Origin: an uncultured Alphaproteobacteria bacterium
GTDB taxonomy: Bacteria; Pseudomonadota; Alphaproteobacteria; UBA828
DNA length: 54,707 nucleotides
Reading direction: 5' to 3'
Assembly: GCA_913053235.1 (NCBI GenBank)
Contig: CAJXFT010000003.1
Coordinates: 1-54,707 of the forward strand
Below the pieces are notes generated by a model. The model was given only the letters and a program-made list of their open reading frames with translations. It made no database searches and had not been told where the DNA came from. Positions 3,287-31,350 of this stretch are shown in pieces (positions within the stretch are counted from its first letter, which is position 1; each line of letters begins with the position of its first letter). The translations under genes were made by a program, and so were the position numbers.

Positions 3287-3312
3287 ATCCTTGTCCTCCC
3301 GCCGGCTCGGAA

Positions 3313-6653: not shown

Positions 6654-7622
6654 TTGGATGGGCCCCGTATGAACGACACATCGTCCATATTCGACAATCC
6701 GCGCGCACTTCCGGGCGACAGGCTGGGCGCCGCGGTATGCGCGCCGGCGAAGACGGAAATATCCGTCTCCTTCGAATTTTTTCCGCCGACGAGCGACAAA
6801 ATCGCGGCCCAGCTATGGAACGCGATCCTCCGCCTGGCGCCGCTAAGCCCGAATTTCGTTTCCGTCACTTACGGCGCCGGCGGCAGCACCCGCGAGCGCA
6901 CCTTCGATACCGTGCGGCGCATCATGCTCGATACCGATCTCACGCCGGCGGCGCATTTGACCTGCGTCGGCGTTTCGCGTGGCGAGGTCGACGATGTCGC
7001 GCGGCGTTATTGGGATGCCGGGGTGCGCCATGTGGTGGCGCTGAGGGGCGACCCGCCCGAAGGCGCGGCGAAATTCGAGGCGGCGAAAGACGGCTACCAA
7101 TACGCCTCTGACCTGGTGGCCGGCCTGCGCCGCGTCGCCGATTTCGAAATCAGCGTCGCCGCCTATCCCGAGGGCCATCCCGAGGCCGAGAGCGCCGCCA
7201 GCGACCTCGACAATCTCAAGCGCAAGATCGACGCCGGCGCCACCCGCGCCATGACCCAGTTCTTTTTCGATGTCGATCTGTTCCTGCGCTTTCGCGACCG
7301 CGCCACCGCCGCCGGCGTCATCGTTCCGATCGTGCCCGGCATCCTGCCGGTGACCAATTATGGCCGCCTCGTCGATTTCAGCGCGCGCTGCGGCGCCTCG
7401 CTGCCGGGCTGGCTGGCGCGCCTGTTCGATGGGCTCGACGACGACCCCGATACGCGCCGCCTGATCGCCGGCTGGATCGCCATCGAACAATGCCGCAGAC
7501 TGCAATCCAACGGCGTGCACAACTTCCATTTTTACACGCTCAACCGGGCCGAGCTGACGCGCGCGATCTGCCATGCCCTCGGCGTTCGAGGCTCGCTGCC
7601 CGTGGCCGGAATCGTGCCATGA
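6654..7622 (+). CDS. metF: 5,10-methylenetetrahydrofolate reductase
   Basis: [53 protein letters not shown]. Start is TTG 6654 (GGAG 9 nt upstream) or ATG 6669. Confidence 0.95.
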
Positions 7623-8676
7623 CGGAACGCCGGGAACGGGCGCAAAGGCTGGAAGAGATGGCGCGCGGGCGCATTCTCATTTTCGATGGCGCCATGGGCA
7701 CCATGATCCAGCGGCTCGGCCTGACGGAAGCCGATTTTCGCGGCGACCTCTTGGCCGAACATAATCGCGACCTCAAGGGCAACAACGACCTGCTGTCGCT
7801 TACCCGCCCGGATGCCATTCGGAATATTCACGCCGAGTTTCTCGCGGCCGGCGCCGATATCGTGACCACCAACAGTTTCAACGCGACGGCAATGTCGCAG
7901 GCCGATTACGGCACCGAGAATTTGGTGCGCGATATGAATATCGCGGCGGCCCGCCTGGCCTCGGAAGCGGCGCGCGCCGCCGCGACGCCGGCATGGCCGC
8001 GTTTCGCCGCCGGCGCCATCGGCCCGACCAGCAAAACCGCCTCGATCTCGCCCGATGTCGCCGATCCGGGTTACCGCGCCGTCACCTTCGACGATTTGCG
8101 CGACGCTTATTTGCAGGCCGCCACCGGCCTGGTCGAAGGCGGGGTCGATCTTCTTATCATGGAGACGGTGTTCGACACCCTGAACGCCAAGGCCGCCATA
8201 TTCGCCCTCGAGGAACTGTTCGACGAGCTCGGCTTTCGCCTGCCGCTCATCCTCTCGGGCACGATCACCGACCTGTCCGGGCGCACCCTGACCGGGCAGA
8301 CCACCGAAGCGTTCTGGAATTCGGTGCGTCACGCGGCGCCCTTCGCCATCGGCCTCAACTGTTCGCTCGGCGCCGAGAACATGCGCCCCTATGTGGCCGA
8401 GCTGTCGCGCGTCGCGGATACGCGCGTCTCGGCCTATCCCAATGCCGGCCTGCCCAACGAGTTCGGCGAATATGACGAAACGCCGGCGCAAACGGCGGCT
8501 TTCCTAAGCGAATGGGCCGAGACCGGGCTGGTAAATCTGGTCGGCGGCTGTTGCGGCACGACGCCCGAACATATCCGCGCCATCGCCGAGGCGGTGGCCG
8601 GCACCCGGCCGCGCGAGATACCGGCGGCGTCCCCGCATCTCCGCCTTTCCGGCCTTGAGCCGCTCGAGATCCGCGC

Positions 8677-8680
<4 letters not shown>
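7619..8680 (+). CDS. metH: methionine synthase, N-terminal homocysteine S-methyltransferase half (split MetH)
   Basis: ATGA overlap with the metF stop. [52 protein letters not shown]. Confidence 0.93.
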
Positions 8681-11340
<2,660 letters not shown>

Positions 11341-11376: not shown

Positions 11377-12129
11377 ATGGATTGGAGCACGGATTTTTCC
11401 GGCAAGAGCGCATTCGTCACCGGTGCCGGCAGCGGCATGGGCCGCGCCGTCGCCAGCGGCCTGTTGCAGGCCGGCGCCGACGTCACCCTCTTCGACCTCA
11501 AGGAGGCGCCCGGCGATTTGCCGGAGGGCGGGCGCTATGTTCAAGGCGATGTCAGCGACGATGGTGCCGTGGCTGCTGCCATCGGCGGCCAGGCGGAGGC
11601 GTCCGGGCGGCTCGATTACCTCGTCAACGCCGCCGGTGTGCTGTGGTTCGAGCGCGACAAATCGGCGGTCGATATCGATCTCGAACTGTGGGACCGCGTG
11701 TTTGCGATAAATCTCAAATCCGTCGTCCATACGGTGCGCCACGCCGTACCGTTTATGAAACAATCGGGCGGCGGCGCCATGGTGCATTTTTCCACCATCC
11801 AATGCCTGCGCGGCGACGCCCAGCCGCAGGACGCCTATCAGGCTTCCAAGGCCGGCATGGTGGCGCTGTCGAAATCCGTCGCCATCCAATTCGCCGCCGA
11901 CAATATCCGCTCCAACGTGATCTATCCCGGCCCGACGCTGACGCCGATGCAGCAACGCTGGCATGACGACCCCGCCACCGGCCAGGCGATCGCCGATTAT
12001 GTGCCGCTGAAGCGCCTCGGCACGCCGCAGGACATGGCCAATGCCTGCCTGTTCCTGCTTTCGGGAGCGGCGGGTTTCGTCACCGGTACCGAACTGATCG
12101 TCGACGGCGGCATCACCGCCCTGCCCTAG
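11377..12129 (+). CDS. SDR family oxidoreductase (probably NAD-preferring)
   Basis: TGAGSGMG, Asp at the end of beta-2, NAAG, YQASK. Strong SD (GGAGAGG) upstream. Confidence 0.88.
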   Translation: MDWSTDFSGKSAFVTGAGSGMGRAVASGLLQAGADVTLFDLKEAPGDLPEGGRYVQGDVSDDGAVAAAIGGQAEASGRLDYLVNAAGVLWFERDKSAVDIDLELWDRVFAINLKSVVHTVRHAVPFMKQSGGGAMVHFSTIQCLRGDAQPQDAYQASKAGMVALSKSVAIQFAADNIRSNVIYPGPTLTPMQQRWHDDPATGQAIADYVPLKRLGTPQDMANACLFLLSGAAGFVTGTELIVDGGITALP

Positions 12130-13843
12130 TTTTCTTCGTCGCGTCGGCGTCCACACCGAGCGGCTCTCCGCTCAACACCACGGCAAACAGGCGTTCCGCC
12201 TCTTCACGCGAATAATAGCCGCGCTTTACGTCCCGCAGCACCAATGCCGGATCGCGCTTGTGCGCATCGCCGTAACCGCCGCCGCCGGGCGTCGAAATAT
12301 GCACGCACTCGCCGGCGGCCAGCGCGATGCCCTGATCCTTGGAGAGGTGCGGCGGCAGGTAGACGCCGTCCTGGCGCGCGACGCTGACCCGGTTGACGCC
12401 GCCCGGTGCGCCGCCGGCCATGCCGTTCGGCCCGAAACGGCCATGATCCATCACCATCGAGGCGCGCGCCGTGCCGCTTCTCAGGCGCACCGTGTAGTTG
12501 ATGCCGAAGCCGCCGCGATATTGGCCGGCGCCGCCCGAGCCCTCATGCAGGGAATATTCGTCGAACAGCACCGGATAGCGCTGCTCGAGCACTTCGACGG
12601 GCTGCGATTTCGAGATGCCGATGGTCGAACAGCCATTGGTCAGGCCGTCGCCTTGCGCTGAGCCGCCATAGCCTCCCCCTGAGAAAAAATAGAGCACATA
12701 GGCGCGCCCGCGCTCGGGGTCGTAACCGCCGAGGGCGAAATTGCCCGAGGTGCCGGCGGGCGCGGCGAAGAGGCGCTCGGGAATCGCCTTGGCGAGGGCA
12801 TCGAACACCGCTTCGGCGATGCGCTGGCTCACCTCCGCCGCGCAGCCCGACACGGGCCGGGGATATTTCGCATAGAGGAAGGTGCCCTCGGGATCAATGA
12901 TGCGGAGCGGCTCGAAGGTGCCGGCATTGATCGGCACTTCGGGGAAGATGTGCTTCATGGCCAGATAAATCGAAGATTTGGTGGTCGCCAACACGCTGTT
13001 CATCGGCCCCTGGCAGGGCGGGCTCGAGCCGGAGAGATCAAAGTGGAGCTCGCCATCCCGTTTGGTGATTTTCATGTCGATCTTGAGCGGCTCGTTCACC
13101 ACGCCGTCCGAATCGACATGCGCCACGCCCTGATAGACGCCGTCCGGAATGGTGTTGATGCGGGCGCGCATTTGACGCGCCGCGCGGGCGCGCATCTCAG
13201 CGATGACCGCGTTCACCAGATCGACACCGTATTTATCCAAGAGCGCCGTCAGGCGACGTTCGCCGACGAAGAGCGCCGCCGATTGCGCCTTGATATCGCC
13301 GATGCGCTGGTCGGCGATGCGCATGTTGGAGAGGAAGATCGAGAGAATCTCCTGGTCGAGCTCGCCTTGCTTGTAGAGCTTCACCGGCGGAAAGCGCAGC
13401 CCCTCCTGCTCGACCTCCGTCGCATGGGCGGAGAAGCCGCCCGGCACCATGCCGCCGGTATCCGGCCAATGCCCGGTGTTGGAAAGCCAGGCAAAAAGCT
13501 CGCCCTGGTAATAGAACGGCATGTGAAAGCGCACATCCATGAGATGGGTGCCGCCGAGATAGGGATCGTTGACGGCGAAAATATCGCCGGGCGATATCTC
13601 GGGCGCACGCTCGATGACGGTGCGGGTGGAAAACTGCATGGTGCCGACGAAGACCGGCAGGCCGAGCTCGCCCTGGGCGATCAGCGCGCCGTCCTCTTTG
13701 GAATAGATGCCGTCCGAGCGGTCGAGCGCTTCCGATATCACCGGGCTGAAGGCGGCGCGCACGAAGGCCAGATCCATCTCGTTGCAAACCTGCTGCAAGC
13801 CGCTCTGCACCACCGAAAGCGTGACCGGATCGATATCGCTCAT
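12113..13843 (-). CDS. hyuB: hydantoinase B/oxoprolinase family subunit (pair 2)
   Basis: 576 aa. DPVTLSVV, AFSPVISE, NDPYLGGTHLMD, HWPDTGG, GAGQYRGG, TPGGGGYG. ATGA-coupled to upstream hyuA. Confidence 0.9.
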   Translation of the reverse strand: MSDIDPVTLSVVQSGLQQVCNEMDLAFVRAAFSPVISEALDRSDGIYSKEDGALIAQGELGLPVFVGTMQFSTRTVIERAPEISPGDIFAVNDPYLGGTHLMDVRFHMPFYYQGELFAWLSNTGHWPDTGGMVPGGFSAHATEVEQEGLRFPPVKLYKQGELDQEILSIFLSNMRIADQRIGDIKAQSAALFVGERRLTALLDKYGVDLVNAVIAEMRARAARQMRARINTIPDGVYQGVAHVDSDGVVNEPLKIDMKITKRDGELHFDLSGSSPPCQGPMNSVLATTKSSIYLAMKHIFPEVPINAGTFEPLRIIDPEGTFLYAKYPRPVSGCAAEVSQRIAEAVFDALAKAIPERLFAAPAGTSGNFALGGYDPERGRAYVLYFFSGGGYGGSAQGDGLTNGCSTIGISKSQPVEVLEQRYPVLFDEYSLHEGSGGAGQYRGGFGINYTVRLRSGTARASMVMDHGRFGPNGMAGGAPGGVNRVSVARQDGVYLPPHLSKDQGIALAAGECVHISTPGGGGYGDAHKRDPALVLRDVKRGYYSREEAERLFAVVLSGEPLGVDADATKKTRAGR

Positions 13844-15879
13844 GCCGTCACCTCGATAACCAGATTGCCGAGACCATCGAGCGAAACGCCGTTGTCGGGC
13901 TCAATGACGGTGGTGCAATCGAGCTGTTCGATGATCGCCGGGCCGATGAGCGCGGCATCGGCGGGCAGAAGGTGGCGCCGGTAAACCGGCGTCTCATGCG
14001 CCCGGCCGGCGAACCAGACGGGGCGTTGGTCGCGCCGAGCATCCGTCACACTCACTTGGTTGCCGGCCGCCGCCAGAGCCTCCAGCGGAGCGCCCGGCCG
14101 GCGCCCGATCACGGCCGTATGGAGGCTCACCAGAACGGCGCGGATTTCCGGCAGCTCGACATGAAAGCGCTCGAGATAGGCGGCTTCGAAGGCGGCTTGG
14201 AGTTCCGCCACTTGCACCCCGGTGCCACTGATCGCAACGGTGAGCAGATGGGTCTGGCCCTCGAACTGCATATCGGCGAAATGCAGGCAATCGATGCCGG
14301 TCACGGCGACCCCTTCGCGCTCGATGGTGGCCCGGCCTTCGGCGATCTGCGCTTCCAGGATGGCGCGCGCCGCGTTGATATCGAGAGCCGAAAGCGGCGC
14401 GTTCAGCGTGTTTACATAATCATGCCGCAAATCGGCGGTGATGCAGCCGATGGCGTTGGTGATGCCGGGGCACGCCGGCACCAGCAGGCGCGGGATGCTC
14501 AATTCGCGCGCCAATGCGGCGGCGTGCATCGGCCCGGCGCCGCCGAAGGCGAACAGGGTGAAATCGCGCGGGTCATGGCCGCGCGCCAGCGTCACCATGC
14601 GGATGGCGCCGGCCATGCGGTCATTGCCGATATCGATGATCGCCGCCGCCGCCGCCTCCAGCCCGAGCCCGAGCGGCGCGCCGATTTCACGCATCACCGC
14701 ATCGCGCACGGCTTTGAGCGGCGCTTCACCGGCGACGCCCAGGAGGTGCGCCGGATCGAGGCGCCCGAGCAGCAGGTTGGCGTCGGTAATCGTCGGCCGC
14801 GCACCGCCCCGGCCATAGCAGATCGGCCCCGGCTCGGCGCCGGCGCTCTCCGGCCCGACCTGCAACATGCCGGCCTCGTTGACGAAGGCGATCGAGCCGC
14901 CGCCGGCGCCGATGGTATGCACGTCGACCATCGGCACGTGAATCGGCATGGCGTATTCGAGCTCCATCTCGGCGGTCACGTCGGGCACGCCGCCCTGCAC
15001 CAGGCCGACATCGCAACTGGTGCCGCCGGTATCGAAGGTGATGAGATTGTCGATGCCGGCGGCGCGCGCCGTCGCCGCCGCCGCCATGACGCCCGAGGCG
15101 GGGCCGGACATCACCGTCTTGACCGCCGCCTCGGCGGCGATGGCGGAGGAGATGCTGCCGCCATTGCCTTGCATGACCAGGAGATCGTGGCGAAAGCCGC
15201 CATCGGCCAATTCGCGCCGCAGGTTCTCGAGATAGCGTTGCAGGACGGGCTGCACGGAGGCGTTTACCGTGGCCGTCACGCCGCGCTCATATTCGCGGTA
15301 TTCGGAAAGGATGGCATGGCCGGCCGTGATGTATGCGTTGGGCCAAATCTCGCGCGCGATTTCCACGGCGCGGCGCTCATGCGCCGGATTGCGGTAGCTG
15401 TGCAGGAAATGCACGACCAGCGATTCGCAGCCCGCCGCGATCAACCGGCGCACCGCCTGGCGCAGCGCTTCCTCGTCCAAGGGCGTCAGAACATTGCCTT
15501 CGGCATCCATGCGCTCGGCCACCTCATAGCGCAGTTCGCGCGGCACCAGGGGCGTGAAACTTCCGAGCAGGCCATAGGGCCGCGGTCGGGTGCGCCGGCC
15601 GAGCTCGAGTACGTCGCGAAAGCCCTTGGTGGTGATCAGCCCGCAACGGCTGAGCTTGCGTTCCAACAGGGCATTTGTGGTGGTGGTGGTGCCGTGGCTG
15701 ATATTGGCGGCGGAGGCCAATTCAACCCCGGCTTCGGCCAGCGCCGCCATGAAGCCCTCGGCCTGATTGGCCGGCGTGGTCGGCACCTTGGCGATGCGCA
15801 CATCGCCGCCGCCGGGCTCCATATAGACGAGATCGGTGAAGGTGCCGCCCACATCGACGCCGACAATGGCTTCGTTCAT
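13840..15879 (-). CDS. hyuA: hydantoinase A/oxoprolinase family ATP-binding subunit (pair 2)
   Basis: 679 aa. DVGGTFTD, HGTTTTTN, REYER, SGPASG, DTGGTS, GAGGGS. ATGA-coupled to the UPF0280 gene. Confidence 0.92.
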   Translation of the reverse strand: MNEAIVGVDVGGTFTDLVYMEPGGGDVRIAKVPTTPANQAEGFMAALAEAGVELASAANISHGTTTTTNALLERKLSRCGLITTKGFRDVLELGRRTRPRPYGLLGSFTPLVPRELRYEVAERMDAEGNVLTPLDEEALRQAVRRLIAAGCESLVVHFLHSYRNPAHERRAVEIAREIWPNAYITAGHAILSEYREYERGVTATVNASVQPVLQRYLENLRRELADGGFRHDLLVMQGNGGSISSAIAAEAAVKTVMSGPASGVMAAAATARAAGIDNLITFDTGGTSCDVGLVQGGVPDVTAEMELEYAMPIHVPMVDVHTIGAGGGSIAFVNEAGMLQVGPESAGAEPGPICYGRGGARPTITDANLLLGRLDPAHLLGVAGEAPLKAVRDAVMREIGAPLGLGLEAAAAAIIDIGNDRMAGAIRMVTLARGHDPRDFTLFAFGGAGPMHAAALARELSIPRLLVPACPGITNAIGCITADLRHDYVNTLNAPLSALDINAARAILEAQIAEGRATIEREGVAVTGIDCLHFADMQFEGQTHLLTVAISGTGVQVAELQAAFEAAYLERFHVELPEIRAVLVSLHTAVIGRRPGAPLEALAAAGNQVSVTDARRDQRPVWFAGRAHETPVYRRHLLPADAALIGPAIIEQLDCTTVIEPDNGVSLDGLGNLVIEVTA

Positions 15880-16718
15880 ACCGCACCCGCGGCCGTCTTA
15901 ACCCGGCCCTGAAGCGAGAGATAGGCGCTGAATATGAGCCCCGCCTTTCGCATGTCGGCGGCGCGGGCGAGGCCGGCATCGAGCGCAAGTTCAACCGCCT
16001 CAGCCGGCAAGTCGCCCACCGCCACCGTCACCGGCATGTCGCCGAGGTCGCTATCGTCGGAGAGAGAACTCGCCGGCGCGCGCTCGACCGCCGCATGGTC
16101 GACAGTGACGGCATTGGCGATCAGCGTCGCCGCGACATCGGCCTCGGCGGCGCAAGCGGCGAGCACGGTCACCGCATCGGCGATGCCGAGTGAATGCGAG
16201 CGCCCGCGCCAGCCCGAGGTCGCCAAGCCGCGCACCGGCATGTCATGCGCCAGGCTGACACGCGCGCCCATGGCCGGCGCGTCGGCATCATCGACGATAC
16301 CGGCGGCGAACGATTGGCCGGGCGCCAGGTGAAAGGCGATATCGCCGCCATTGTTGCAATAAACCCGCCTCAGATCGCGCCCCGCCGTCAGCGCGGCCAA
16401 TACTTCATCGGCGACGGCGCCGGCCACCGCAACCATCGGCGTCACGAAAGCATCGCGGTGCGGCCACACCGCGTCGGCCATGCGCCGCGCCACGGCGCCG
16501 TTGAGAAGCGGCCGCTTCGCGCCGACGGGTGCGCGCAGGCGCGGCAATTCGGCCACCAGTTCGTCGAGGATCGAGGCGAAGCGTTTTCCGGCCTGCTTGT
16601 AGGCGGTCTTGACTTCCGTTTCTTCTCCTTCGGCCAAGGCGATGATATCGATGGGGCCGTGATTGAGATGCAGCCGCCGGCCATCGCCGAGCAATGCTAT
16701 TTGCGCCGCTTCCGTCAT
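15876..16718 (-). CDS. UPF0280 / ApbE-like family protein
   Basis: C-terminal 280 aa of the 741-aa ORF, starting at ATG 16718 (ATGA overlap with hnr stop). RLHLNHGPID, TPMVAVAGAVADE, NNGGDIA, ATSGWRGRSHSLGIADAVTV, ADVAATLIANAV. Confidence 0.85.
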   Translation of the reverse strand: MTEAAQIALLGDGRRLHLNHGPIDIIALAEGEETEVKTAYKQAGKRFASILDELVAELPRLRAPVGAKRPLLNGAVARRMADAVWPHRDAFVTPMVAVAGAVADEVLAALTAGRDLRRVYCNNGGDIAFHLAPGQSFAAGIVDDADAPAMGARVSLAHDMPVRGLATSGWRGRSHSLGIADAVTVLAACAAEADVAATLIANAVTVDHAAVERAPASSLSDDSDLGDMPVTVAVGDLPAEAVELALDAGLARAADMRKAGLIFSAYLSLQGRVKTAAGAV

Positions 16719-18154
16719 AGCGGCCAAGGGTTGGCGTCGTTCCAGGCGTCGACGCGCAGCTTGCCGTCCCGCCCCGGCACCTGATCGAGCCCGATGATGG
16801 CCCCGACATGGCCGCCAAGCGCCGCATAATCGCTGCGCGTCAGGGTGAACTCGATCGGTGCGACAAGCGCCGGGGTCGGCACATAGCCGAATGAATTCTC
16901 CGGCATGCGCGTGACATCGACCATCAGGGTGATGCCGCCGCCGGGCCACACATAGACCGGCGCGCCGCCGCAGGTCACCCGGGTCAGCGCCGCTTTCACC
17001 GATCTGGTGAGGCGCACCGGATTCTCGGTCACCCCGGAACGCAGACTGCCGCCGGCGCCGGCCATGAACAGCACCGTCGACAGCGCCGGCTCGCAATTTT
17101 CGGCGATGCGCGCTACCACCGTTTCGATCTCCGCCGGCATGTCGCCGGGCACCGGCACCAGATCGTCGTCGAGCACGTACCAGGCGGCATCCTCGCCGGT
17201 GGTCGAAACCATATGCAGGCGCAGGCCCGGCCAGGCCTTCTCGGGATCGATGCGCTCGATGATTTGCAAGGGGTCGTCGATGTCGGTGCCGCCCCAGCCC
17301 GAGCCGTGTCCGGCGACCTGAAAATAGCGCCCCGGCGTCGAGCGCCGCCCGCGCACGCGGATACCGGCCGGCGGCACATCGAGAAAGCGCCCCGCCTGAT
17401 GCTCGCTCATCACGCCGGTAATATGATCGTCGACGACGATCACCTCGTCGGCATGGCCGAACCATTGCTGGGCGAACATGCCCATGGCGGCGGAGCCGCA
17501 GCCGACGCGCATGCGCTGTTCCTGCTCGCCGTCGACGATCGGCGGCGCCCCCGCCTGCACCACGACGGCCGAGCCGCCATCGACTTGCAGTTCCACCGCT
17601 TCGCCGTTGCACATGGCGAGGAGCGCGTCGCAGGTGACCGTGCCCTCGCGCTTGGAGCCGCCGGTGAAATGGCGCACACCGCCGAGCGAGAGCATCTGCG
17701 AGCCATACTCCGCCGTCGTCACATGGCCGACCGGCTCGCCCTGGCAGCGCACTTGTGCCTGCTCGGGCCCGAGATAGCGGTCGGTATCGATCTTCACCTT
17801 GACGCCGCAATAGCTGAATATGCCTTCCGAGACGACGGTCACCATATCGACGCCATCGATCTCGGCGGAAACGATGAACGGCGCCGGCTTGTAATCCGGA
17901 TAGGTGGTGCCGGCGCCGAGCCCGGTGACGAAGCTCTCGCTCGGCTTCAGCATCTCGCCCGACCAGTCCTTGGCGCCTTCCATGAGCGGCACCAGTCTGT
18001 CCGAGCGGCTCGCCACCAGCAGCGCATCGAGGCGCGCGAGCCTGCCGCCCAAATTGGCGTAGCGGTCGCAGGCGCCGGCCTTGCCGTCGCGAATGCGGCA
18101 CAGCACCGGGCAGGCATCGCAGCGGAGGATGCCGTCGTCGCTTTCAGCCATCAT
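16715..18154 (-). CDS. hnr: 6-hydroxynicotinate reductase
   Basis: 479 aa. N-terminal CDACPVLC...GACDRY Fe-S motif, GAGTTYPDYKPAPFIV, EGIFSYC, RMRVGCGSA, GRRSTPGRYF, GAGGSLR.GVTENPV, WPGGGIT. Follows the Mo-hydroxylase genes. Confidence 0.85.
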   Translation of the reverse strand: MMAESDDGILRCDACPVLCRIRDGKAGACDRYANLGGRLARLDALLVASRSDRLVPLMEGAKDWSGEMLKPSESFVTGLGAGTTYPDYKPAPFIVSAEIDGVDMVTVVSEGIFSYCGVKVKIDTDRYLGPEQAQVRCQGEPVGHVTTAEYGSQMLSLGGVRHFTGGSKREGTVTCDALLAMCNGEAVELQVDGGSAVVVQAGAPPIVDGEQEQRMRVGCGSAAMGMFAQQWFGHADEVIVVDDHITGVMSEHQAGRFLDVPPAGIRVRGRRSTPGRYFQVAGHGSGWGGTDIDDPLQIIERIDPEKAWPGLRLHMVSTTGEDAAWYVLDDDLVPVPGDMPAEIETVVARIAENCEPALSTVLFMAGAGGSLRSGVTENPVRLTRSVKAALTRVTCGGAPVYVWPGGGITLMVDVTRMPENSFGYVPTPALVAPIEFTLTRSDYAALGGHVGAIIGLDQVPGRDGKLRVDAWNDANPWPL

Positions 18155-20882
18155 TTTGCTCCTCAGCCAGAATCGCCGCCCGCAGCCGGTGCGGCAGCGC
18201 CGGCGCGCGCGTCAGGCGAACTCCCGTGGCGTCGCGGATGGCGCCGAATATCGCCGGCGCCGTCGGGATCAATCCCGGCTCGCCGACCCCCTTGGCGCCG
18301 TAGGGGCCGAGCGGTTCCTCCTCCTCGACGACCAGCACTTCGATTTCGGGCATGTCGCCAATGGTGGGAATCAGGTAATCGTGCAGATTGTCGCTCCGCC
18401 CGGGCACATATTCCTCCATCAGGGCGAGGCCGAGGCCCTGGGCGATGCCGCCCTGCACCTGGCCTTCGACCTGGATCGGATTGATGGCGCGCCCGACATC
18501 GTGCGCGGCGGTGATTTTCAGCACGCTCGTGGTTCCCAGTTCCATATCCACTTCCACCGTGGCGATCTGGGCGGCGAAGCTGTAGGTGGCGTAGGGCGAG
18601 CCCTGGCCGTTCTCATCCAGCCCAATTGTCGGCGGGTCGAAAGTTCCGCGCCCCTGCATAACCGCGCCATCCTGGTCCATCGGCAATTTGGAAAGATCGA
18701 TCTCATGTTGCCCGCCGCCGTCGCGCACCGTCACGATATTGCCGGCCAGCTCGATTTCGGACTCAGGCCCGGCATTGGCGTGGCGCAGGATATGCCGCCG
18801 CAGATCCTCGCCGGCGAGCTGCGCCGCCCTGCCCGAGACGAAGGTCTGGCGCGAGGCCGAGGTCTTGCCGGCATCCGCCGTCAGATCCGTATCGCCGACG
18901 GTTTGTTCGATATGCGCCACCGGCAGGCCCAGCCCGTCGGCACAAATTTGCGCTATAACGGTGGTCGAGCCCTGGCCGATATCGACGGCGCCGTTGTAAA
19001 GCTTCAGTTTGCCGCCGCTGTCGAGAGCGATGCGCATGGTCGAGGGGTTGCTGAGCCCGGTATTGCCGATGCCGTACCACATGCAGCCGATGCCGACGCC
19101 GCGGCGGCGCTCTCCGGCGCTGGCGTTAAACGCGCTCACCTGGTCGAGCGCGGCGCGCCAATGGGGCGCCAATAATTCGAGACATGGCGCGAGGCCGGCG
19201 CTGGCTTCCAGCACCTGCCCGGTGCCTGTGGCCTGGCCGGCGCGCAGCGCGTTGACGAGGCGAATTTGCAGGCGGTCGATGGCGAGTTTCTCGGCGAGAT
19301 CGTCGAGCATCGTCTCATGGGCGATCGCCGCCTGCGGCACGCCGAAGCCGCGAAAGGCGCCGCAGGACGGGCCGTTGGTCAACACCGCGCGGCCGCTGGT
19401 CTCGACATTGGGCACATGATAGGGGCCCATGGCGTGCACCGGCACGCGCCCGGCCACGGTCGGCCCCCAGGAGGCGTAGCCACCGGTATTGACGTCGGCA
19501 TGGAATTTGACCGCCTGCAAGCGGCCCTCACCGTCGCAGCCGAAGCGCGCCGTCATGAAGGCGGGATGGCGCTTGGTGGTGCTGATCATGCTTTCTGGGC
19601 GGCTGTAGATGCAGGCCACCGGGCGCCCGGTGAGCCAGGCGGCGAGCGCGACCAGGGGCTGCACCGAAAGATCGAGCTTGCCGCCGAAGCCGCCGCCGCA
19701 GGCGGTCGGGATGACGCGCACGTCTTCAGGCGCCAGCCCGAGCACGCCGGCCACCTCGTCGCGGTCCATTATCGGCGTTTGCGTCGAGACGTGGATTTCC
19801 ACCCGCTGCCCGACGCGCCGCGCCCAGCCCGCCTCGGGCTCGATATAGGCATGCTCGACATAGCTGGTTTCAAACTCGCCCTCGGCAATGGCGGCGCAGC
19901 TTTCGAAGGCGGCGCCGGCATGGCCTTTTTTCACCCGGCCCTCGGCGAGGATATTGCCGGGCCGGTCGGCATGCAGTTGAAAGGCGCCGGACGCCGTCGC
20001 CGAGGCGATATCATGCATGGCGTCGAGCGGCTGATAGGTGATCGGCAGGTCGCCATCGCGTATCGCCTCCACCGCAGCGCGCTCGCCGACCAGTGCCACC
20101 ACGCCCTCGCCGCGAACCCGCACCAAGCCCTCGGCCAGGACCGGCTGGTCCTTGCGGCCGGGCAGGATGGCGTAGAGATTTTGTGGCGCGTCGGCTGCCG
20201 TCAGCACGCGCGCGATGCCGGGATGGGCGGCCATAAAGGCGTCCATATCTCCCAAGGTAAAGCGCGCGAACGCGCGCGGCGAGCGCACCACGCGCAGCCA
20301 CAGCGCGTCTTCGGGGATAGCGTCGGCGCCATATGTCTCGGCGCCGCTCAGCATGGCCAGGCCGTCGGTCTTGGCCAGGCGGGCGCCGACCGCCGCCCCC
20401 GCCGGCGGCGCCTCGCCGCTTCCTTCTCCGTCAATATCGAGCACCGCTTCGACGATCTTGATATAACCGGTGCAGCGGCACAGCACGCCGCCCAGCGCAT
20501 CTTTCACTTGGCTCCCGTTCGGCCGCGCCACCCGCGCCAGCAAATCGCTCGCCGCCATCAGCATACCGGGGGTGCAGATGCCGCATTGCGCCGCGCCATG
20601 GCGCTGGAAGGCGGCTTGCAGCTTGTGCAGGGAGGCGCCGTCGGCGAGGCCCTCGACCGTCGCCACCCGGCGCCCCTCGGCCTGACCCAGCGGCACCATG
20701 CAGGCGCATACCTGTTCGCCGTCGAGAAGCACGGTACAGGCGCCGCAATCGCCGGCATTGCAGCCGATCTTGGTGCCCTTCAGGCCGAGATCGTCACGCA
20801 ACACGTCCGAAAGGCGCTTGACGCCGGGGGCGCTCACTGCGACGTCACGGCCATTGACGTTAATATGCACCGCCGCGCTCAT
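18144..20882 (-). CDS. xanthine-oxidase-family Mo-hydroxylase, fused [2Fe-2S] + molybdopterin subunit (nicotinate dehydrogenase-like)
   Basis: 912 aa. GCNAGDCGACTV and QCGICTPG...CRCTGY Fe-S motifs; GGGFGGK, AFRGFG, SASRQT and GAKGVGE Mo-site motifs. Confidence 0.9.
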   Translation of the reverse strand: MSAAVHINVNGRDVAVSAPGVKRLSDVLRDDLGLKGTKIGCNAGDCGACTVLLDGEQVCACMVPLGQAEGRRVATVEGLADGASLHKLQAAFQRHGAAQCGICTPGMLMAASDLLARVARPNGSQVKDALGGVLCRCTGYIKIVEAVLDIDGEGSGEAPPAGAAVGARLAKTDGLAMLSGAETYGADAIPEDALWLRVVRSPRAFARFTLGDMDAFMAAHPGIARVLTAADAPQNLYAILPGRKDQPVLAEGLVRVRGEGVVALVGERAAVEAIRDGDLPITYQPLDAMHDIASATASGAFQLHADRPGNILAEGRVKKGHAGAAFESCAAIAEGEFETSYVEHAYIEPEAGWARRVGQRVEIHVSTQTPIMDRDEVAGVLGLAPEDVRVIPTACGGGFGGKLDLSVQPLVALAAWLTGRPVACIYSRPESMISTTKRHPAFMTARFGCDGEGRLQAVKFHADVNTGGYASWGPTVAGRVPVHAMGPYHVPNVETSGRAVLTNGPSCGAFRGFGVPQAAIAHETMLDDLAEKLAIDRLQIRLVNALRAGQATGTGQVLEASAGLAPCLELLAPHWRAALDQVSAFNASAGERRRGVGIGCMWYGIGNTGLSNPSTMRIALDSGGKLKLYNGAVDIGQGSTTVIAQICADGLGLPVAHIEQTVGDTDLTADAGKTSASRQTFVSGRAAQLAGEDLRRHILRHANAGPESEIELAGNIVTVRDGGGQHEIDLSKLPMDQDGAVMQGRGTFDPPTIGLDENGQGSPYATYSFAAQIATVEVDMELGTTSVLKITAAHDVGRAINPIQVEGQVQGGIAQGLGLALMEEYVPGRSDNLHDYLIPTIGDMPEIEVLVVEEEEPLGPYGAKGVGEPGLIPTAPAIFGAIRDATGVRLTRAPALPHRLRAAILAEEQNDG

Positions 20883-21724
20883 GCCCGGGCGCCCAATTCA
20901 TTCAAGGTCCGGCGCACCAGGGTCAGGGCGGCGTCACGGCGATACGCGGCCGAGCCGCGAAGATCGTCGAGCGGCGCCAGATGCGCCAGATGCGCAGGTG
21001 CCACAAACTCTCCCAGCGCGGCGCCGCAAGGCCGCCCGACCAGCGCCTCTTCGAGAGCCGGCAGGCGGCAGGCGATCTCCGAACAGGCGCCCACCGCGAG
21101 GCGCGCCGCGCTGACGTTGCCGCCCTCGTCGATTTCCACGTTCGCCGCCACCATGACGATGGAGATCACCAGATATTTGCGCGCCCCGAGCTTGAGGAAA
21201 TGCCCGGCGGCGCGCGCCTGGCGCGGCTTGGGCAGGATCACGGCGGTCAGGAGTTGGTCGGCACCGAGCGCCGTCCTGCGCGACCCCAGAATGAAATCTT
21301 CGAACGCCAGGTTTTGTGTGCCTTGCGCCGACGATAATTCGACCGAGGCGCCGAGGCTGAGGAGCGGCGGCACCCCGTCGGCCGCCGCACTTGCGTTGCA
21401 CAGATTGCCGCCCAGCGTGCCCCTGTTCTGGACCTGCACGCCGCCCACTTGGCGCGCCACCAGCTTGAGGCCGTCGAATAGCGGCGGCAGATCGGCGGTG
21501 ATGATATCGCTCCACGTGGTGAGCGCGCCGAGGCGCCAATGATCGGCGCGCTCCTCGATGGCCCGCAAATCCTCGATGGCGCTGATGTCGAGCACGTCAT
21601 CGTCAGGCACCTGATCGACCCGCGCGGGATAAAAATCGGTGCCGCCCGCGAGCACGCTCCAGGGCGCGGCGCCGAGCGCCTCCAATGCCGGTTTCAGCGT
21701 CTCGGGGCGTAAATATTCAGCCAT
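20879..21724 (-). CDS. Mo-hydroxylase FAD-binding subunit (CoxM/NdhF-like)
   Basis: 281 aa. LAGGTD, QVQNRGTLGGNLCNAS..AD, FLKLGAR. ATGA-coupled to the large subunit. Confidence 0.9.
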   Translation of the reverse strand: MAEYLRPETLKPALEALGAAPWSVLAGGTDFYPARVDQVPDDDVLDISAIEDLRAIEERADHWRLGALTTWSDIITADLPPLFDGLKLVARQVGGVQVQNRGTLGGNLCNASAAADGVPPLLSLGASVELSSAQGTQNLAFEDFILGSRRTALGADQLLTAVILPKPRQARAAGHFLKLGARKYLVISIVMVAANVEIDEGGNVSAARLAVGACSEIACRLPALEEALVGRPCGAALGEFVAPAHLAHLAPLDDLRGSAAYRRDAALTLVRRTLNELGARA

Positions 21725-21729
21725 GAGAA

Positions 21730-21758
21730 ATCATATGTATACATATGAATAGCGTCAA
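21730..21758 (-). promoter_or_regulatory. sigma70 promoter with embedded 18-bp perfect palindrome (MarR operator candidate); leaderless transcript predicted
   Basis: Minus strand reads TTGACG-N17-TATGAT-ttctc-ATG. The palindrome TCATATGTATACATATGA (21731-21748) covers the spacer and the -10 element. Confidence 0.8.
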
Positions 21759-21768
21759 CCGGCGGCGC

Positions 21769-22215
21769 TCAGGTGAGCCGTTTCAGAAGGCGCAGAAATT
21801 GTTTCCGCTCGGCCCCGGACAAGGGTTCCAGAATTCCTTCGCTCACTTCGAAGCCATTCGGTATCACGCGTTCCGCCAGGCGAACGCCTGTGGCGCTGAG
21901 GCGCAGCAGGGTGCGCCTGCCGTCCTTCGGATCGGCGCGCCCGGCGATCAACCCGCGCGCCTTGAGGCGGCGCGTGACGCCCTGGATGGTCGCCGGGTCC
22001 ATGGCGGTCAAGCGCCCGAGATGGTTCTGGCTCAACTCGCCTTCATCGGCGAGCTTGGCCAGGGCGGCGAATTGCGTCGGCGTGACATCCGCATCGTTGA
22101 GGCGCTCGAGGAAAATCGCCGTCGCCCGCTGATGCGCACGGCGCAACAAATGCCCCACCTGATCCTCCAGGCGGTAGCTGTTTTCCTCAATCTTCCCGGT
22201 CTTTTTAGCACTCAT
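21769..22215 (-). CDS. MarR family regulator, NicR-like
   Basis: YRLEDQVGHLLRRAHQRATAIF, TPTQFAAL, SQNHLGRLTAMDPATIQGV, DPKDGRR. ATG at 22215; lies next to the nicotinate-type genes. Confidence 0.85.
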   Translation of the reverse strand: MSAKKTGKIEENSYRLEDQVGHLLRRAHQRATAIFLERLNDADVTPTQFAALAKLADEGELSQNHLGRLTAMDPATIQGVTRRLKARGLIAGRADPKDGRRTLLRLSATGVRLAERVIPNGFEVSEGILEPLSGAERKQFLRLLKRLT

Positions 22216-22317
22216 GCTGTTCTGTTTATCATCCTCGATGAGGGGCGGGAATCGCGAATATCTTGTGCCGGCGGGCGGAGCGCGCATAATCCTTGGCGTT
22301 CGGTGATGGAGAAAGCC

Positions 22318-23373
22318 ATGGCGAGTTACGAAATCGCGCTCATTCCGGGGGACGGCATCGGCAAGGAGGTGCTGCCCGAGGCGGTGAGCGTGTTGGAAAA
22401 GGTCGGCGCCAAGTTCGGCATTTCATTCAAGTGGCGCCAATTCGATTGGTCGTGCGAGACCTACGCCAAAACCGGCCGCATGATGCCGGAGGACGGCATC
22501 GAGCAGCTTCGCCCCTTCGATGCCATCTTCCTCGGCGCCGTCGGCTATCCCGGCGTCGCCGATCACGTCTCGCTATGGGGATTGTTGATCCCGATCCGCC
22601 GCGCCTTCCGGCAATATGTCAATCTGCGCCCGATCAAGCTGATGCGGGGCGTCACCACGCCGCTCGCCGGGCGCCAAGCCGGCGATATCGATTTCACCAT
22701 CGTGCGCGAAAACAATGAGGGCGAATATTCCGAGATGGGCGGGCGCATCTATGCCGGCACGGCGCGCGAGATGGTGATCCAGGAGAGCGTCTTCACCCGC
22801 GAGGGCGTCGACAAGGTGATGCGCTTCGCCTTCGAGCAGGCGGCCAAGCGCCGCCGCCACGTCACCTCGGCGACCAAATCGAACGGCATCATCCACACCA
22901 TGCCCTATTGGGACGAGCGCTTCGAGGCCATGAAACCGAACTATCCCGATATCGAAACCGACCAGTTTCATATCGATATTCTCTCCGCCCAATTCGTCCA
23001 GCACCCCGACTGGTTCGATGTCGTGGTCGGCAGCAACCTGTTCGGCGATATTCTCTCCGACCTCGGCGCCGCGGTGGTCGGCGGCATGGGCCTGGCGCCG
23101 GCCGCCAATATCAATCCGGAAAAGGAACATCCCTCCATGTTCGAGCCGGTGCACGGCTCGGCGCCCGATATCGCCGGGCAGAACATCGCCAACCCGATCG
23201 CGCAGATCTGGACCGGCGCCATGATGCTCGACCATCTCGGTCATGAAGACGCCGGCAAGGCCGTCACCGGCGCTATCGAAGCGGTGCTCGCCGATGGCGC
23301 CGTTCTGACCCGCGATTTGGGCGGCACCGCCAGCACGCAGCAGCTCGGCGAGACCATCGCAGCGGCGCTCTGA
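22318..23373 (+). CDS. tartrate dehydrogenase / D-malate dehydrogenase (decarboxylating)
   Basis: IPGDGIG, DHVSLWGLL, VRENNEGEYS, SATKSNGI...MPYWD, NLFGDILSD, FEPVHGSAPDIAG. Start follows a GGAGA SD. Confidence 0.9.
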   Translation: MASYEIALIPGDGIGKEVLPEAVSVLEKVGAKFGISFKWRQFDWSCETYAKTGRMMPEDGIEQLRPFDAIFLGAVGYPGVADHVSLWGLLIPIRRAFRQYVNLRPIKLMRGVTTPLAGRQAGDIDFTIVRENNEGEYSEMGGRIYAGTAREMVIQESVFTREGVDKVMRFAFEQAAKRRRHVTSATKSNGIIHTMPYWDERFEAMKPNYPDIETDQFHIDILSAQFVQHPDWFDVVVGSNLFGDILSDLGAAVVGGMGLAPAANINPEKEHPSMFEPVHGSAPDIAGQNIANPIAQIWTGAMMLDHLGHEDAGKAVTGAIEAVLADGAVLTRDLGGTASTQQLGETIAAAL

Positions 23374-23380
23374 GCCGGCC

Positions 23381-24793
23381 ATGGACGCGCGGCGCAACAG
23401 TCATTGGCTGAGCGAGGCGATCGCTCCGGACGAGGAGAATAGCCCGTCATTGCACGGCGATATCAGCGCCGATGTCTGTATCGTCGGCGGCGGATTTACC
23501 GGCCTGTGGACTGCCCTCGCCCTTAAGCAGCAAGAACCGACGCTGGATGTTGTGATCCTGGAAAAGGACGTCTGCGGCGCCGGCGCGAGCGGGCGCAATG
23601 CCGGCTACGTCCTCAGTTGGTGGGCCAAATTCGCCTCGCTCGAAAAGATTTGCGGCGGCGAGGAGGCGGTGCGCCTCGCCGTCGCTTCGGCCGAAGCCGT
23701 GAACGCCATTGGTGATTTCTGCCGCCAGGAAGGCATCGACGCCCACTACCGCCGCGACGGCTGGCTGTGGGCGGCCACCAGTGACCAACAGGTGGGCAGC
23801 TGGAACGGCACCGTCGAAGCGGCGGAGCGCTACCAGCAACATCCTTTCGAGAGGTGGAGCCCAGAGGAAGTCGTCGCGCGCTCAGGCACAACACGCTATC
23901 AGGCGGGGATTTTCGAGCCTGGTGCTGCCAGCGTACAACCGGCGGCGCTGGCGCGTGGGCTTCGCCGATCCGCCTTGGCGCGCGGCGTGCGAATTTTCGA
24001 AAACACGCCGCTGACAAAGCTGAAGGGTGCGGCAAAGCCCGAAGTCATAACCCCGAAAGGCCGCGTCAAAGCCGCCAAACTGGTGCTGGCGATGAATGCC
24101 TGGGGCATCCGTTTCGCCGCCATCCGGCGCGCCATCGTCGTCGTCTCGTGCGATATGATCATGACCGAAGCCATGCCCGAGCGCATTAAGGAGATCGGCT
24201 GGCCGGGCGACCTGTTGATCACGGACAGCCGCATGCTGATCAATGCCCAATGCACCACGCGCGACGGCCGCATCGGCTTCTGCAAGGGCGGCATGAACGG
24301 CCGCCTGCCTTATGGCAGCCATGTCGGCACCAAATTGGATGGCCCCTCGCCGCTCAGGGAGGACGTCATCTCGTGGCTCGCCTGGACCTATCCCAAACTC
24401 GGCAGGGTGCGCCCGGCCAGCAGTTGGATGGGGCCGATCGACCGCTCCAAGGACGGACTGCCCCATTTCGGCGCGCTCGAAGGCCGGCCCAACGTCTTCC
24501 ATGCCGTCGGCTATTCAGGCAACGGCGTCGGCCCGTCCTATCTCGGTGGCAAGATTCTCGCCTCGCTGGCCCTGGAAAAGCAGGACGAATGGTCGGGATG
24601 CAGCCTGGTGCGCCCGCTCGGGCGCGACTTTCCGCCCGAGCCGATCCGCTATTTCGGCGGCAAACTGGTGCGCAGCGCCATCGCCCGCACCGACGCGGCG
24701 GCGGATAAGGGCAAGAGCCCCGGCCCCCTCACCCGCTATCTCGCCGGCTTCGCCCCCGCCGGCCTGTCGCCGTTCAAGGGACAAAAGACCTGA
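23381..24793 (+). CDS. FAD-dependent amine/amino-acid oxidoreductase (DAO/PuuB-like)
   Basis: 470 aa. IVGGGFTGL, GASGRNAG, VQPAALARGL, W.GPID, GYSGNGVG, FPPEP. Confidence 0.85.
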   Translation: MDARRNSHWLSEAIAPDEENSPSLHGDISADVCIVGGGFTGLWTALALKQQEPTLDVVILEKDVCGAGASGRNAGYVLSWWAKFASLEKICGGEEAVRLAVASAEAVNAIGDFCRQEGIDAHYRRDGWLWAATSDQQVGSWNGTVEAAERYQQHPFERWSPEEVVARSGTTRYQAGIFEPGAASVQPAALARGLRRSALARGVRIFENTPLTKLKGAAKPEVITPKGRVKAAKLVLAMNAWGIRFAAIRRAIVVVSCDMIMTEAMPERIKEIGWPGDLLITDSRMLINAQCTTRDGRIGFCKGGMNGRLPYGSHVGTKLDGPSPLREDVISWLAWTYPKLGRVRPASSWMGPIDRSKDGLPHFGALEGRPNVFHAVGYSGNGVGPSYLGGKILASLALEKQDEWSGCSLVRPLGRDFPPEPIRYFGGKLVRSAIARTDAAADKGKSPGPLTRYLAGFAPAGLSPFKGQKT

Positions 24794-31333: not shown

Positions 31334-31350
31334 AAAGGGAGAGACGCAGC

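Follow-up and report, generated by a model that had tools for sequence, protein, structure and literature searches.

Which enzyme opens the reduced ring in a nicotinate-type operon that carries no enamidase? The question is raised by a stretch of 54,707 nucleotides (hereafter the window) from an uncultured alphaproteobacterium of the UBA828 lineage (assembly GCA_913053235.1, contig CAJXFT010000003.1). In the pathway described for Eubacterium barkeri and Azorhizobium caulinodans, nicotinate is converted to 6-hydroxynicotinate, then to 1,4,5,6-tetrahydro-6-oxonicotinate (THON), and finally to 2-formylglutarate, the ring being opened by a bifunctional enamidase (PMC9304392). The window holds six minus-strand genes in one chain, coding for the FAD subunit and the fused iron-sulfur/molybdenum (FeS/Mo) subunit of a hydroxylase, a homolog of 6-hydroxynicotinate reductase (Hnr), a UPF0280 protein, and the proteins HyuA and HyuB of the hydantoinase/oxoprolinase family. 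An initial annotation of the window had proposed that HyuAB replaces enamidase as an ATP-dependent ring opener. The comparative analysis of this locus and its relatives favors that view: the genes probably form a reductive nicotinate operon in which HyuAB would open THON with ATP in place of enamidase. Across Hnr clusters, enamidase and the HyuAB clade of this operon, whose members are called HyuA1 and HyuB1 when orthologous to its pair, exclude each other in a conserved and reciprocal manner.

This distribution was established from two sides. The Hnr-side set contains the closest 80 of at least 297 Hnr relatives, in species-representative genomes; the HyuB-side set contains the loci of the closest 80 of at least 521 HyuB relatives (71–92% identity), among them loci of SAR324, of β-, γ-, and δ-proteobacterial metagenome-assembled genomes (MAGs), and of Ferrovibrio. 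By tblastn, the 80 Hnr loci share a conserved core, [MarR]-FAD-FeS/Mo-Hnr-UPF0280. In 29 of these loci Hnr has enamidase within 10 kb (one further short partial match falls at the end of a locus), in 21 it has HyuA1/HyuB1, and in none of the 80 are both present. The same holds genome-wide, as a HyuB1 ortholog is present in 29 of the 80 genomes, an enamidase ortholog (at least 49% identity; one in three pieces and two with an internal stop) in 46, neither in 5, and both in none. A naive Fisher test for exclusivity gives p = 5e-17 on genomes that are not independent. From the other side, Hnr is found in the locus itself for 46 of the 80 best HyuB1 loci and elsewhere in the genome for 29 of the remaining 34, so that 75 of the 80 come from Hnr-bearing genomes. 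None of the HyuB-side loci has enamidase or X205, a protein of the AA_synth family (PF06684), and in 20 HyuB-side loci UPF0280 and hyuA are direct neighbors, with 24–86 nt between the matches. No enamidase ortholog was found in the 74 further HyuB1 genomes, 13 of which have only an enamidase-like paralog of 35–41% identity. Enamidase orthologs are thus absent from all 103 genomes with a HyuB1 ortholog, and also from the window's own genome.

The latter (3.9 Mb in 363 contigs, 94.66% complete) was searched with enamidase proteins from two loci that match PDB entry 2VUN at 390 and 317 bits. No ortholog was found there, the best match by tblastn being 26% identical over 160 aa at E = 0.003. The amidohydrolase families PF01979 and PF07969 have 18 and 23 matches in this genome, none of them on the window contig. 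The initial annotation had stated that no amidohydrolase gene is present in the window, and had named a search for enamidase elsewhere in the genome, the mutual exclusivity of the two enzymes, and the conservation of the hnr-hyuAB linkage as the ways to check its proposal; the statement holds, and none of the three checks refutes the proposal.

In some clusters the exchange is seen in place. The genes after UPF0280 in L011, L014, and L061 code for a Rieske oxygenase of the VanA type, a periplasmic binding protein, a permease, and a pair of ABC ATPases, with HyuA and HyuB coming last. The same UPF0280-Rieske-ABC block is found in L021 and in six of its close relatives, where it is followed by X205 and enamidase, and the binding protein of L021 is 80% identical to its counterpart in L014 and L061 and 73% to that of L011. 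Because the same block is followed by HyuA-HyuB in one case and by X205-enamidase in the other, the swapped unit is two genes for two. X205 is present in the locus of 38 of the 46 enamidase-type genomes, compared with 1 of the 29 HyuAB-type ones, and X195, the second PF06684 protein, follows UPF0280 in both types. The pattern suggests an enamidase-linked role for X205. Genes of this family (AA_synth, formerly DUF1185) are found at L021:18315-18932, L010:12342-12929, and L162:8967-9566, and X205 also occurs beside the enamidase-like paralog. Queries with X195, X205, and the Rieske protein found nothing in the window's own genome; the binding-protein queries give weak matches (24–27% identity) plus generic matches to ABC ATPases, and the window is without a cluster-linked transporter.

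The switch between the enamidase and HyuAB states occurred repeatedly. An 81-row tree of Hnr needs at least 10 state changes, and well-supported branches force at least 4 of these. A tree of 167 rows, to which the HyuB-side Hnr proteins and 50 enamidase-bearing loci of the Hyphomicrobiales type were added, requires at least 11 changes, with 6 or more forced in the same way.

The HyuAB pair has the features expected of an ATP-dependent lactamase. Against PDB, HyuA matches the N-methylhydantoinase 7HK5 (434.6 bits) and the α subunit of caprolactamase, 6YRA_A (386.2 bits), and HyuB matches 6YRA_B (291.6 bits). The ATP motifs given for caprolactamase are phosphate-1 DxGGTxxD, phosphate-2 DxGGT, and adenosine GxxPGP (PMC8453981); HyuA carries all three, as GVDVGGTFTD, DTGGTS, and GAEPGP. 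The same source reports that residues D11 and D295 of CapA and D41, H99, D102, and H124 of CapB are required for activity (D102 as in its Table 4; the abstract prints D101). Residues D41, H100, D103, and H125 of HyuB align with the zinc ligands D41, H99, D102, and H124 of CapB. Within this family, CapAB is described as opening caprolactam with ATP (PMC8453981), and OplA/OplB as hydrolyzing the six-membered δ-valerolactam, also with ATP (PMC11033972).

Several observations weigh against giving HyuAB this role. The substrates assigned to the individual steps, the need for ATP, and the reason for the swap are all inferred; as enamidase needs no ATP, an ATP-consuming replacement has no evident benefit. 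HyuA and HyuB score 504.2 and 343.3 bits with the NCBIfam caprolactamase equivalogs NF050156 and NF050157, for a cutoff of 1000; caprolactamase proper was therefore rejected as an identity for the pair, which is related but falls far below these cutoffs. The statistics of the switch are also limited. Within the Hnr-side set there are 5 supported independent pairs, enamidase being in the opposite state in about 3.7 of them and never changing the same way, and the test (p ~0.125) is underpowered. With the 167-row tree, 6 of 6 pairs are opposite (p = 0.031), the added enamidase rows being scored for HyuB1 at the level of the locus only and the five rows with neither enzyme being left out, so that the two traits are complementary by coding; hence, this test mainly shows at least six independent switches between enamidase and HyuAB. 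The absence of enamidase from the window's own genome is no proof at the completeness of that assembly, and 5 of the 80 HyuB1 loci come from genomes in which no Hnr was found, although these may be incomplete MAGs. In L085 (4988-11016), the MAG of a close relative, a tartrate-dehydrogenase-like (TartDH) gene, a gap of 460 bp, HyuA1 (80%), HyuB1 (87%), and a short-chain dehydrogenase (SDR) gene succeed one another. This corresponds to the neighborhood in the window with the Mo/Hnr/UPF0280 block missing, and the search of this MAG yielded no Hnr. Either the Hnr block was lost there or HyuAB is used without Hnr. Finally, an enamidase-like paralog of 35–44% identity is present in 19 of the 103 HyuAB-type genomes, one copy scoring 343 bits with 2VUN; the paralog could hydrolyze THON, and the window's own genome does not have it.

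The same paralog stands beside the true enamidase in 6 enamidase-type genomes. In L162 (952-11880) it is accompanied by a TRAP transporter, the large subunit of a Mo-hydroxylase, an AA_synth protein, and an HpaB-like flavin monooxygenase, and in L163 (5909-8624) it lies beside an HpaB-like gene. This cluster possibly represents a pathway for another N-heterocycle.

A further objection comes from the number of similar pairs. The 3.9-Mb genome contains about 30 pairs of HyuA/HyuB paralogs, three of them inside the window, and one could regard the pair of the operon as a passenger that serves an unrelated lactam such as 5-oxoproline. The persistence of hyuAB in L085 without the Hnr block, and the position of the pair outside the examined Hnr locus in 8 of the 29 HyuAB-type genomes of the Hnr-side set, would fit such a case. 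With so many paralogs, adjacency alone means little, and the relevant test is whether this particular ortholog travels with Hnr. It does, and its orthologs separate sharply from the paralogs: in other genomes, the HyuB orthologs are 65–92% identical and the paralogs at most 46%, with one intermediate, fused-looking protein at 59% (G068), and within its own genome the window HyuB is at most 44% identical to its paralogs. Since the synteny of this specific ortholog is conserved, chance adjacency is excluded. The ATGA overlap of hyuA with the UPF0280 gene, the presence of Hnr in nearly all the genomes of the best HyuB1 loci, the lack of enamidase in every HyuB1-ortholog genome, and the repeated, independent switching on the Hnr tree all speak for a pair that belongs to the pathway, and a passenger seems very improbable. 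The other two pairs of the window are at 1529-5406 (-) and 29285-33081 (+), and these and the further pairs of the genome are 25–53% identical to that of the operon, a striking expansion of ATP-dependent enzymes of the lactamase/carboxylase family. Some HyuB1 matches (Reyranella group, G072) were flagged as having one internal TGA; in the Reyranella locus L243 this TGA is the natural stop, overrun by the alignment, and the flag was discarded.

If HyuAB acts within the pathway, the nature of its substrate depends on the upstream enzymes. The Mo-hydroxylase is complete, with an FAD subunit, two 2Fe-2S domains, an a/b hammerhead, and two Mo-cofactor-binding domains, all above the Pfam cutoffs. 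The three chains of 3HRD, the nicotinate dehydrogenase of E. barkeri, sum to 625 bits (255.5 + 244.7 + 125.1), whereas the best single PDB chain for the 912-aa subunit is an aldehyde oxidoreductase at 378 bits. We regard the enzyme as a putative nicotinate dehydrogenase. The 479-aa protein has at least 8000 homologs, and those that are named are called 6-hydroxynicotinate reductase (NCBI, UniRef, JGI). It is 67% identical to the Hnr of L060 (Xanthobacteraceae), whose best 79 relatives (74–91% identity) include proteins of Azorhizobium, Xanthobacter, Afipia, Bradyrhizobium, and Bosea. In Bradyrhizobiaceae SG-6C, the homolog is reported to have 42% identity with E. barkeri Hnr, and its cluster to be conserved in A. 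caulinodans, Bradyrhizobium, and Rhodopseudomonas (PMC3511419). The link between the 479-aa protein and E. barkeri Hnr is thus indirect, passing through the names of homologs and through the SG-6C and L060 relatives.

Both cluster types could instead degrade another N-heterocyclic carboxylate, HyuAB then opening the matching reduced lactam. The NCBIfam matches of the Mo-hydroxylase, to xanthine, aldehyde, and 4-hydroxybenzoyl-CoA enzymes, are all below cutoff, and the Hnr homolog has no match in Pfam, NCBIfam, or the PDB sequences, which leaves room for such a substrate. Yet the summed PDB score is highest for 3HRD, the enamidases of the sister clusters match 2VUN at 317–390 bits, and nicotinate-dependent growth of SG-6C and Azorhizobium, via 6-hydroxynicotinate, has been linked to a cluster of this type (PMC3511419). 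We think another carboxylate improbable.

The structural models add little on Hnr and more on its neighbor. The AlphaFold2 (AF2) model of Hnr has a predicted local distance difference test (pLDDT) score of 73; Foldseek found no PDB match at E ≤ 0.001, and the best Z of the wide VIA-align search is 4.8. The Hnr of E. barkeri is a flavin- and Fe-S-containing enzyme. Cysteines C12, C15, C19, and C29 are invariant in 47 Hnr sequences, and we infer that these N-terminal residues are putative Fe-S ligands. The AF2 model of UPF0280 (pLDDT 95) has 2O34 (DUF375) as its top Foldseek match (E = 1.3e-10) and also matches the flavin transferases ApbE/Ftp/FmnB (E ~2e-4 to 7e-3, TM ~0.4–0.55). UPF0280 directly follows Hnr in nearly all the loci surveyed. 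With its ApbE-like fold, it is probably a maturation or flavin-handling helper of Hnr. Two database proteins of 751–782 aa (P0064 and P0106) are apparent Hnr-UPF0280 fusions. In P0064, residues 492-726 align with UPF0280 and are followed by an odd tail; a frameshift that lets the reading run through the ATGA overlap may account for this fusion, which was not used as evidence.

The remaining alternative keeps HyuAB in the pathway but gives it another lactam, such as 6-oxopiperidine-3-carboxylate or an N-methylated analog, in a chemically distinct branch. The family does act on saturated lactams, namely caprolactam (PMC8453981) and δ-valerolactam (PMC11033972), and the loss of X205 along with enamidase (38/46 vs 1/29) is a two-gene module swap that could mean altered chemistry. 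Some clusters also contain the VanA-like Rieske oxygenase (L021:12476-13522, with PF00355 and PF19112; also L011, L014, L061, and L137), between UPF0280 and the Liv-type ABC genes. One may speculate that it is a demethylase feeding in an N- or O-methylated precursor. However, this gene is present in both cluster types, no additional gene for a reductase or for methyl handling varies together with HyuAB, and in the clade of the window the cluster passes directly from UPF0280 to HyuA. Moreover, the two types have orthologous versions of Hnr, the Mo-hydroxylase, MarR, and the operator-like motif, and downstream of hyuB the loci have no conserved gene in common; in particular, the sets found there are lineage-specific and provide no conserved gene that would take 2-formylglutarate onward. 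Another lactam is hence unlikely, if worth keeping in view. THON is the more plausible substrate because the swap occurs within clusters that keep the Mo-hydroxylase, Hnr, UPF0280, MarR, the operator-like motif, and the transporter, which speaks for the same intermediate. Of the substrates suggested in the initial annotation, THON is therefore supported by the comparative tests, and the N-methyl or fully saturated compounds are less favored.

The proposed pathway would run as follows. The Mo-hydroxylase (FAD and fused FeS/Mo subunits) would hydroxylate nicotinate to 6-hydroxynicotinate, which Hnr, probably assisted by UPF0280, would reduce to the cyclic enamide THON. HyuA would then use ATP to activate the lactam, most likely by turning it into a phosphorylated lactim, and the metal site of HyuB would hydrolyze the activated lactam, in place of the metal hydrolase enamidase. 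The product would be an open-chain enamine, decaying to 2-formylglutarate and ammonia. Expression would be controlled by MarR at a palindromic operator ahead of the FAD gene. The selective reason for the swap is possibly an irreversible opening of the ring at low substrate concentration. A bolder proposal, to which we give an even chance, is that the HyuAB clade of the Hnr clusters is an ATP-dependent lactamase dedicated to THON, which repeatedly displaced the module of enamidase and AA_synth (PF06684) in SAR324 and in Proteobacteria of marine and fresh waters, turning a freely reversible opening into an irreversible one and enabling the scavenging of trace nicotinate. If so, THON would be the first unsaturated, carboxylated δ-lactam among the substrates of the hydantoinase/oxoprolinase family, and X205 would be a helper specific to enamidase.

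The six genes of the operon are translationally coupled (Table 1). The chain sits behind a MarR gene on the same strand, for a total of seven genes over 12113-22287 (-). Direct reading of the junctions confirmed the order and coupling of the six genes as initially annotated: ATGA stop/start overlaps are found at 20879-20882, 16715-16718, 15876-15879, and 13840-13843, the genes of the Mo subunit and of the Hnr homolog overlap by 11 nt (18144-18154), and a gap of 44 nt separates the end of marR from the FAD gene. The promoter scan of the whole region gave 3 sites for 2.0 expected, i.e., chance level, and is weak by itself; the promoter-like site in the gap, the best of the region, counts because of its position and because the motif recurs in relatives. 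MarR orthologs of 44–78% identity stand beside Hnr clusters of both the enamidase and the HyuAB types, and in the marR-FAD gap of relatives of both types there are palindromic motifs centered on GTATAC or GTACGTAC. The palindrome of the window is probably the MarR operator. The presence of MarR orthologs and of a related motif in both cluster types fits one effector and one pathway. Four seawater DNA runs, from four studies, cover all 30 bins at 95% identity or more. Among the read-derived pieces listed for these runs, whose contigs are short, none spans the UPF0280/hyuA junction, and so the adjacency of these two genes rests on the window and on the independent assemblies of relatives.

Table 1. 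Genes and control sites of the HyuAB-bearing Hnr operon, with positions in the window
Feature	Position	Strand	Matches and remarks
MarR-family regulator	21769-22287	(-)	PF12802, PF01047; alternative ATG start at 22215, the end coordinate of the initial annotation; upstream of the operon
Promoter-like site, TTGACG-17-TATGAT	21730-21758	(-)	10/12 matches; overlaps the 16-bp palindrome
Perfect 16-bp palindrome, CATATGTATACATATG	21732-21747		marR-FAD gap; putative MarR operator
FAD subunit, Mo-hydroxylase of the xanthine dehydrogenase family	20879-21724	(-)	PF00941 (126.7 bits), PF03450 (66.1 bits)
Fused 2Fe-2S and molybdopterin subunit, 912 aa	18144-20882	(-)	PF00111, PF01799, PF01315, PF02738, PF20256
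Hnr (6-hydroxynicotinate reductase) homolog, 479 aa	16715-18154	(-)	Database names of homologs
UPF0280 protein	15876-16718	(-)	NF003322 (357.7 bits; cutoff 290)
HyuA, ATP-binding subunit, hydantoinase/oxoprolinase family	13840-15879	(-)	PF05378, PF01968, PF19278
HyuB, hydrolytic subunit with metal site	12113-13843	(-)	PF02538 (543.7 bits); last gene of the chain

The genes flanking the operon differ in their conservation from its core. An SDR gene at 11377-12129 (+) is convergent with hyuB, the two ends overlapping at 12113-12129, and a tartrate-dehydrogenase-like gene at ~22318-23373 (+; TIGR02089, 549.5 bits, above cutoff) and a DAO-family oxidoreductase gene at 23381-24793 (+) are divergent from marR. 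These three are kept only in the nearest relatives and were not assigned to the pathway. Further away, methionine synthase is apparently split: a gene at 7490-8680 (+) with the homocysteine S-methyltransferase domain overlaps the start of one at 8677-11340 (+) that carries the pterin-binding, B12-binding, and activation domains, and an MTHFR gene (6654-7622) lies upstream of both.

The reductive THON route has been known with one ring opener, enamidase, and the HyuAB clusters point to a second, unrelated, and energy-consuming solution in more than 100 species-level genomes, the HyuAB type being common in seawater lineages. Cultured strains of this type in the set are Salipiger pallidus CGMCC 1.15762 (L073), Rhizobium sp. 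L1K21 (L079), and Alphaproteobacteria bacterium 46_93_T64 (L039); Roseovarius litoreus (L046) and Dongia soli (L016) have enamidase and AA_synth. The case would be one of a known pathway with a nonorthologous displacement at one step, and THON a new candidate substrate class for the HyuAB family. The initial annotation had suggested that this would be an undescribed variant, and the full-text literature searched contains no description of the enamidase/HyuAB swap and nothing that links HyuAB to nicotinate or THON, subscription journals and supplements being outside the scope of that search. If confirmed, the assignment would give a defined physiological substrate to a large and mostly unassigned family, correct the pathway predictions that score HyuAB-type genomes as lacking nicotinate catabolism, provide a natural ATP-dependent δ-lactamase for biocatalysis, and point to a role for the PF06684 proteins.

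Three known systems can be compared with the one of the window. With CapAB (6YRA), N-methylhydantoinase (7HK5), and OplAB, it shares the two-subunit HyuA/HyuB architecture, the ATP motifs, and the Asp-His-Asp-His metal site. Unlike CapAB, the pair of the window belongs to an orthologous clade of its own, tied to Hnr clusters, and its proposed substrate THON differs from those of CapAB and OplAB in being an unsaturated, carboxylated δ-lactam, a type unreported for the family in the literature searched. The upper pathway of E. barkeri offers the same succession of C6 hydroxylation, ring reduction to THON, and hydrolytic C-N opening; an Hnr homolog is present in the window, and the best summed PDB match of its Mo-hydroxylase is 3HRD. 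The differences from E. barkeri are the lack of enamidase (2VUN) in the window, with ring opening assigned to an ATP-dependent HyuAB, the fusion of the FeS and Mo subunits in one protein of 912 aa instead of the split NdhS/NdhL/NdhM of NdhFSLM, and the host, an aerobic-type marine proteobacterium, the genes of the later fermentation being absent from the window. Among proteobacteria, an Hnr cluster is described in A. caulinodans ORS571, Bradyrhizobium japonicum, Rhodopseudomonas palustris, and Bradyrhizobiaceae SG-6C, and in SG-6C and Azorhizobium this cluster has been connected with the use of nicotinate for growth, through 6-hydroxynicotinate and the THON pathway (PMC3511419). In contrast with the window, the Azorhizobium-type cluster codes for enamidase, an ABC transporter of the Liv type, and a pair of AA_synth proteins (PF06684); among 79 loci of the Azorhizobium/Bradyrhizobiaceae type, 50 have enamidase and none a HyuB1 ortholog. 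What the two have in common is an Hnr of the same family, its adjacency to UPF0280, and a regulator of the MarR type.

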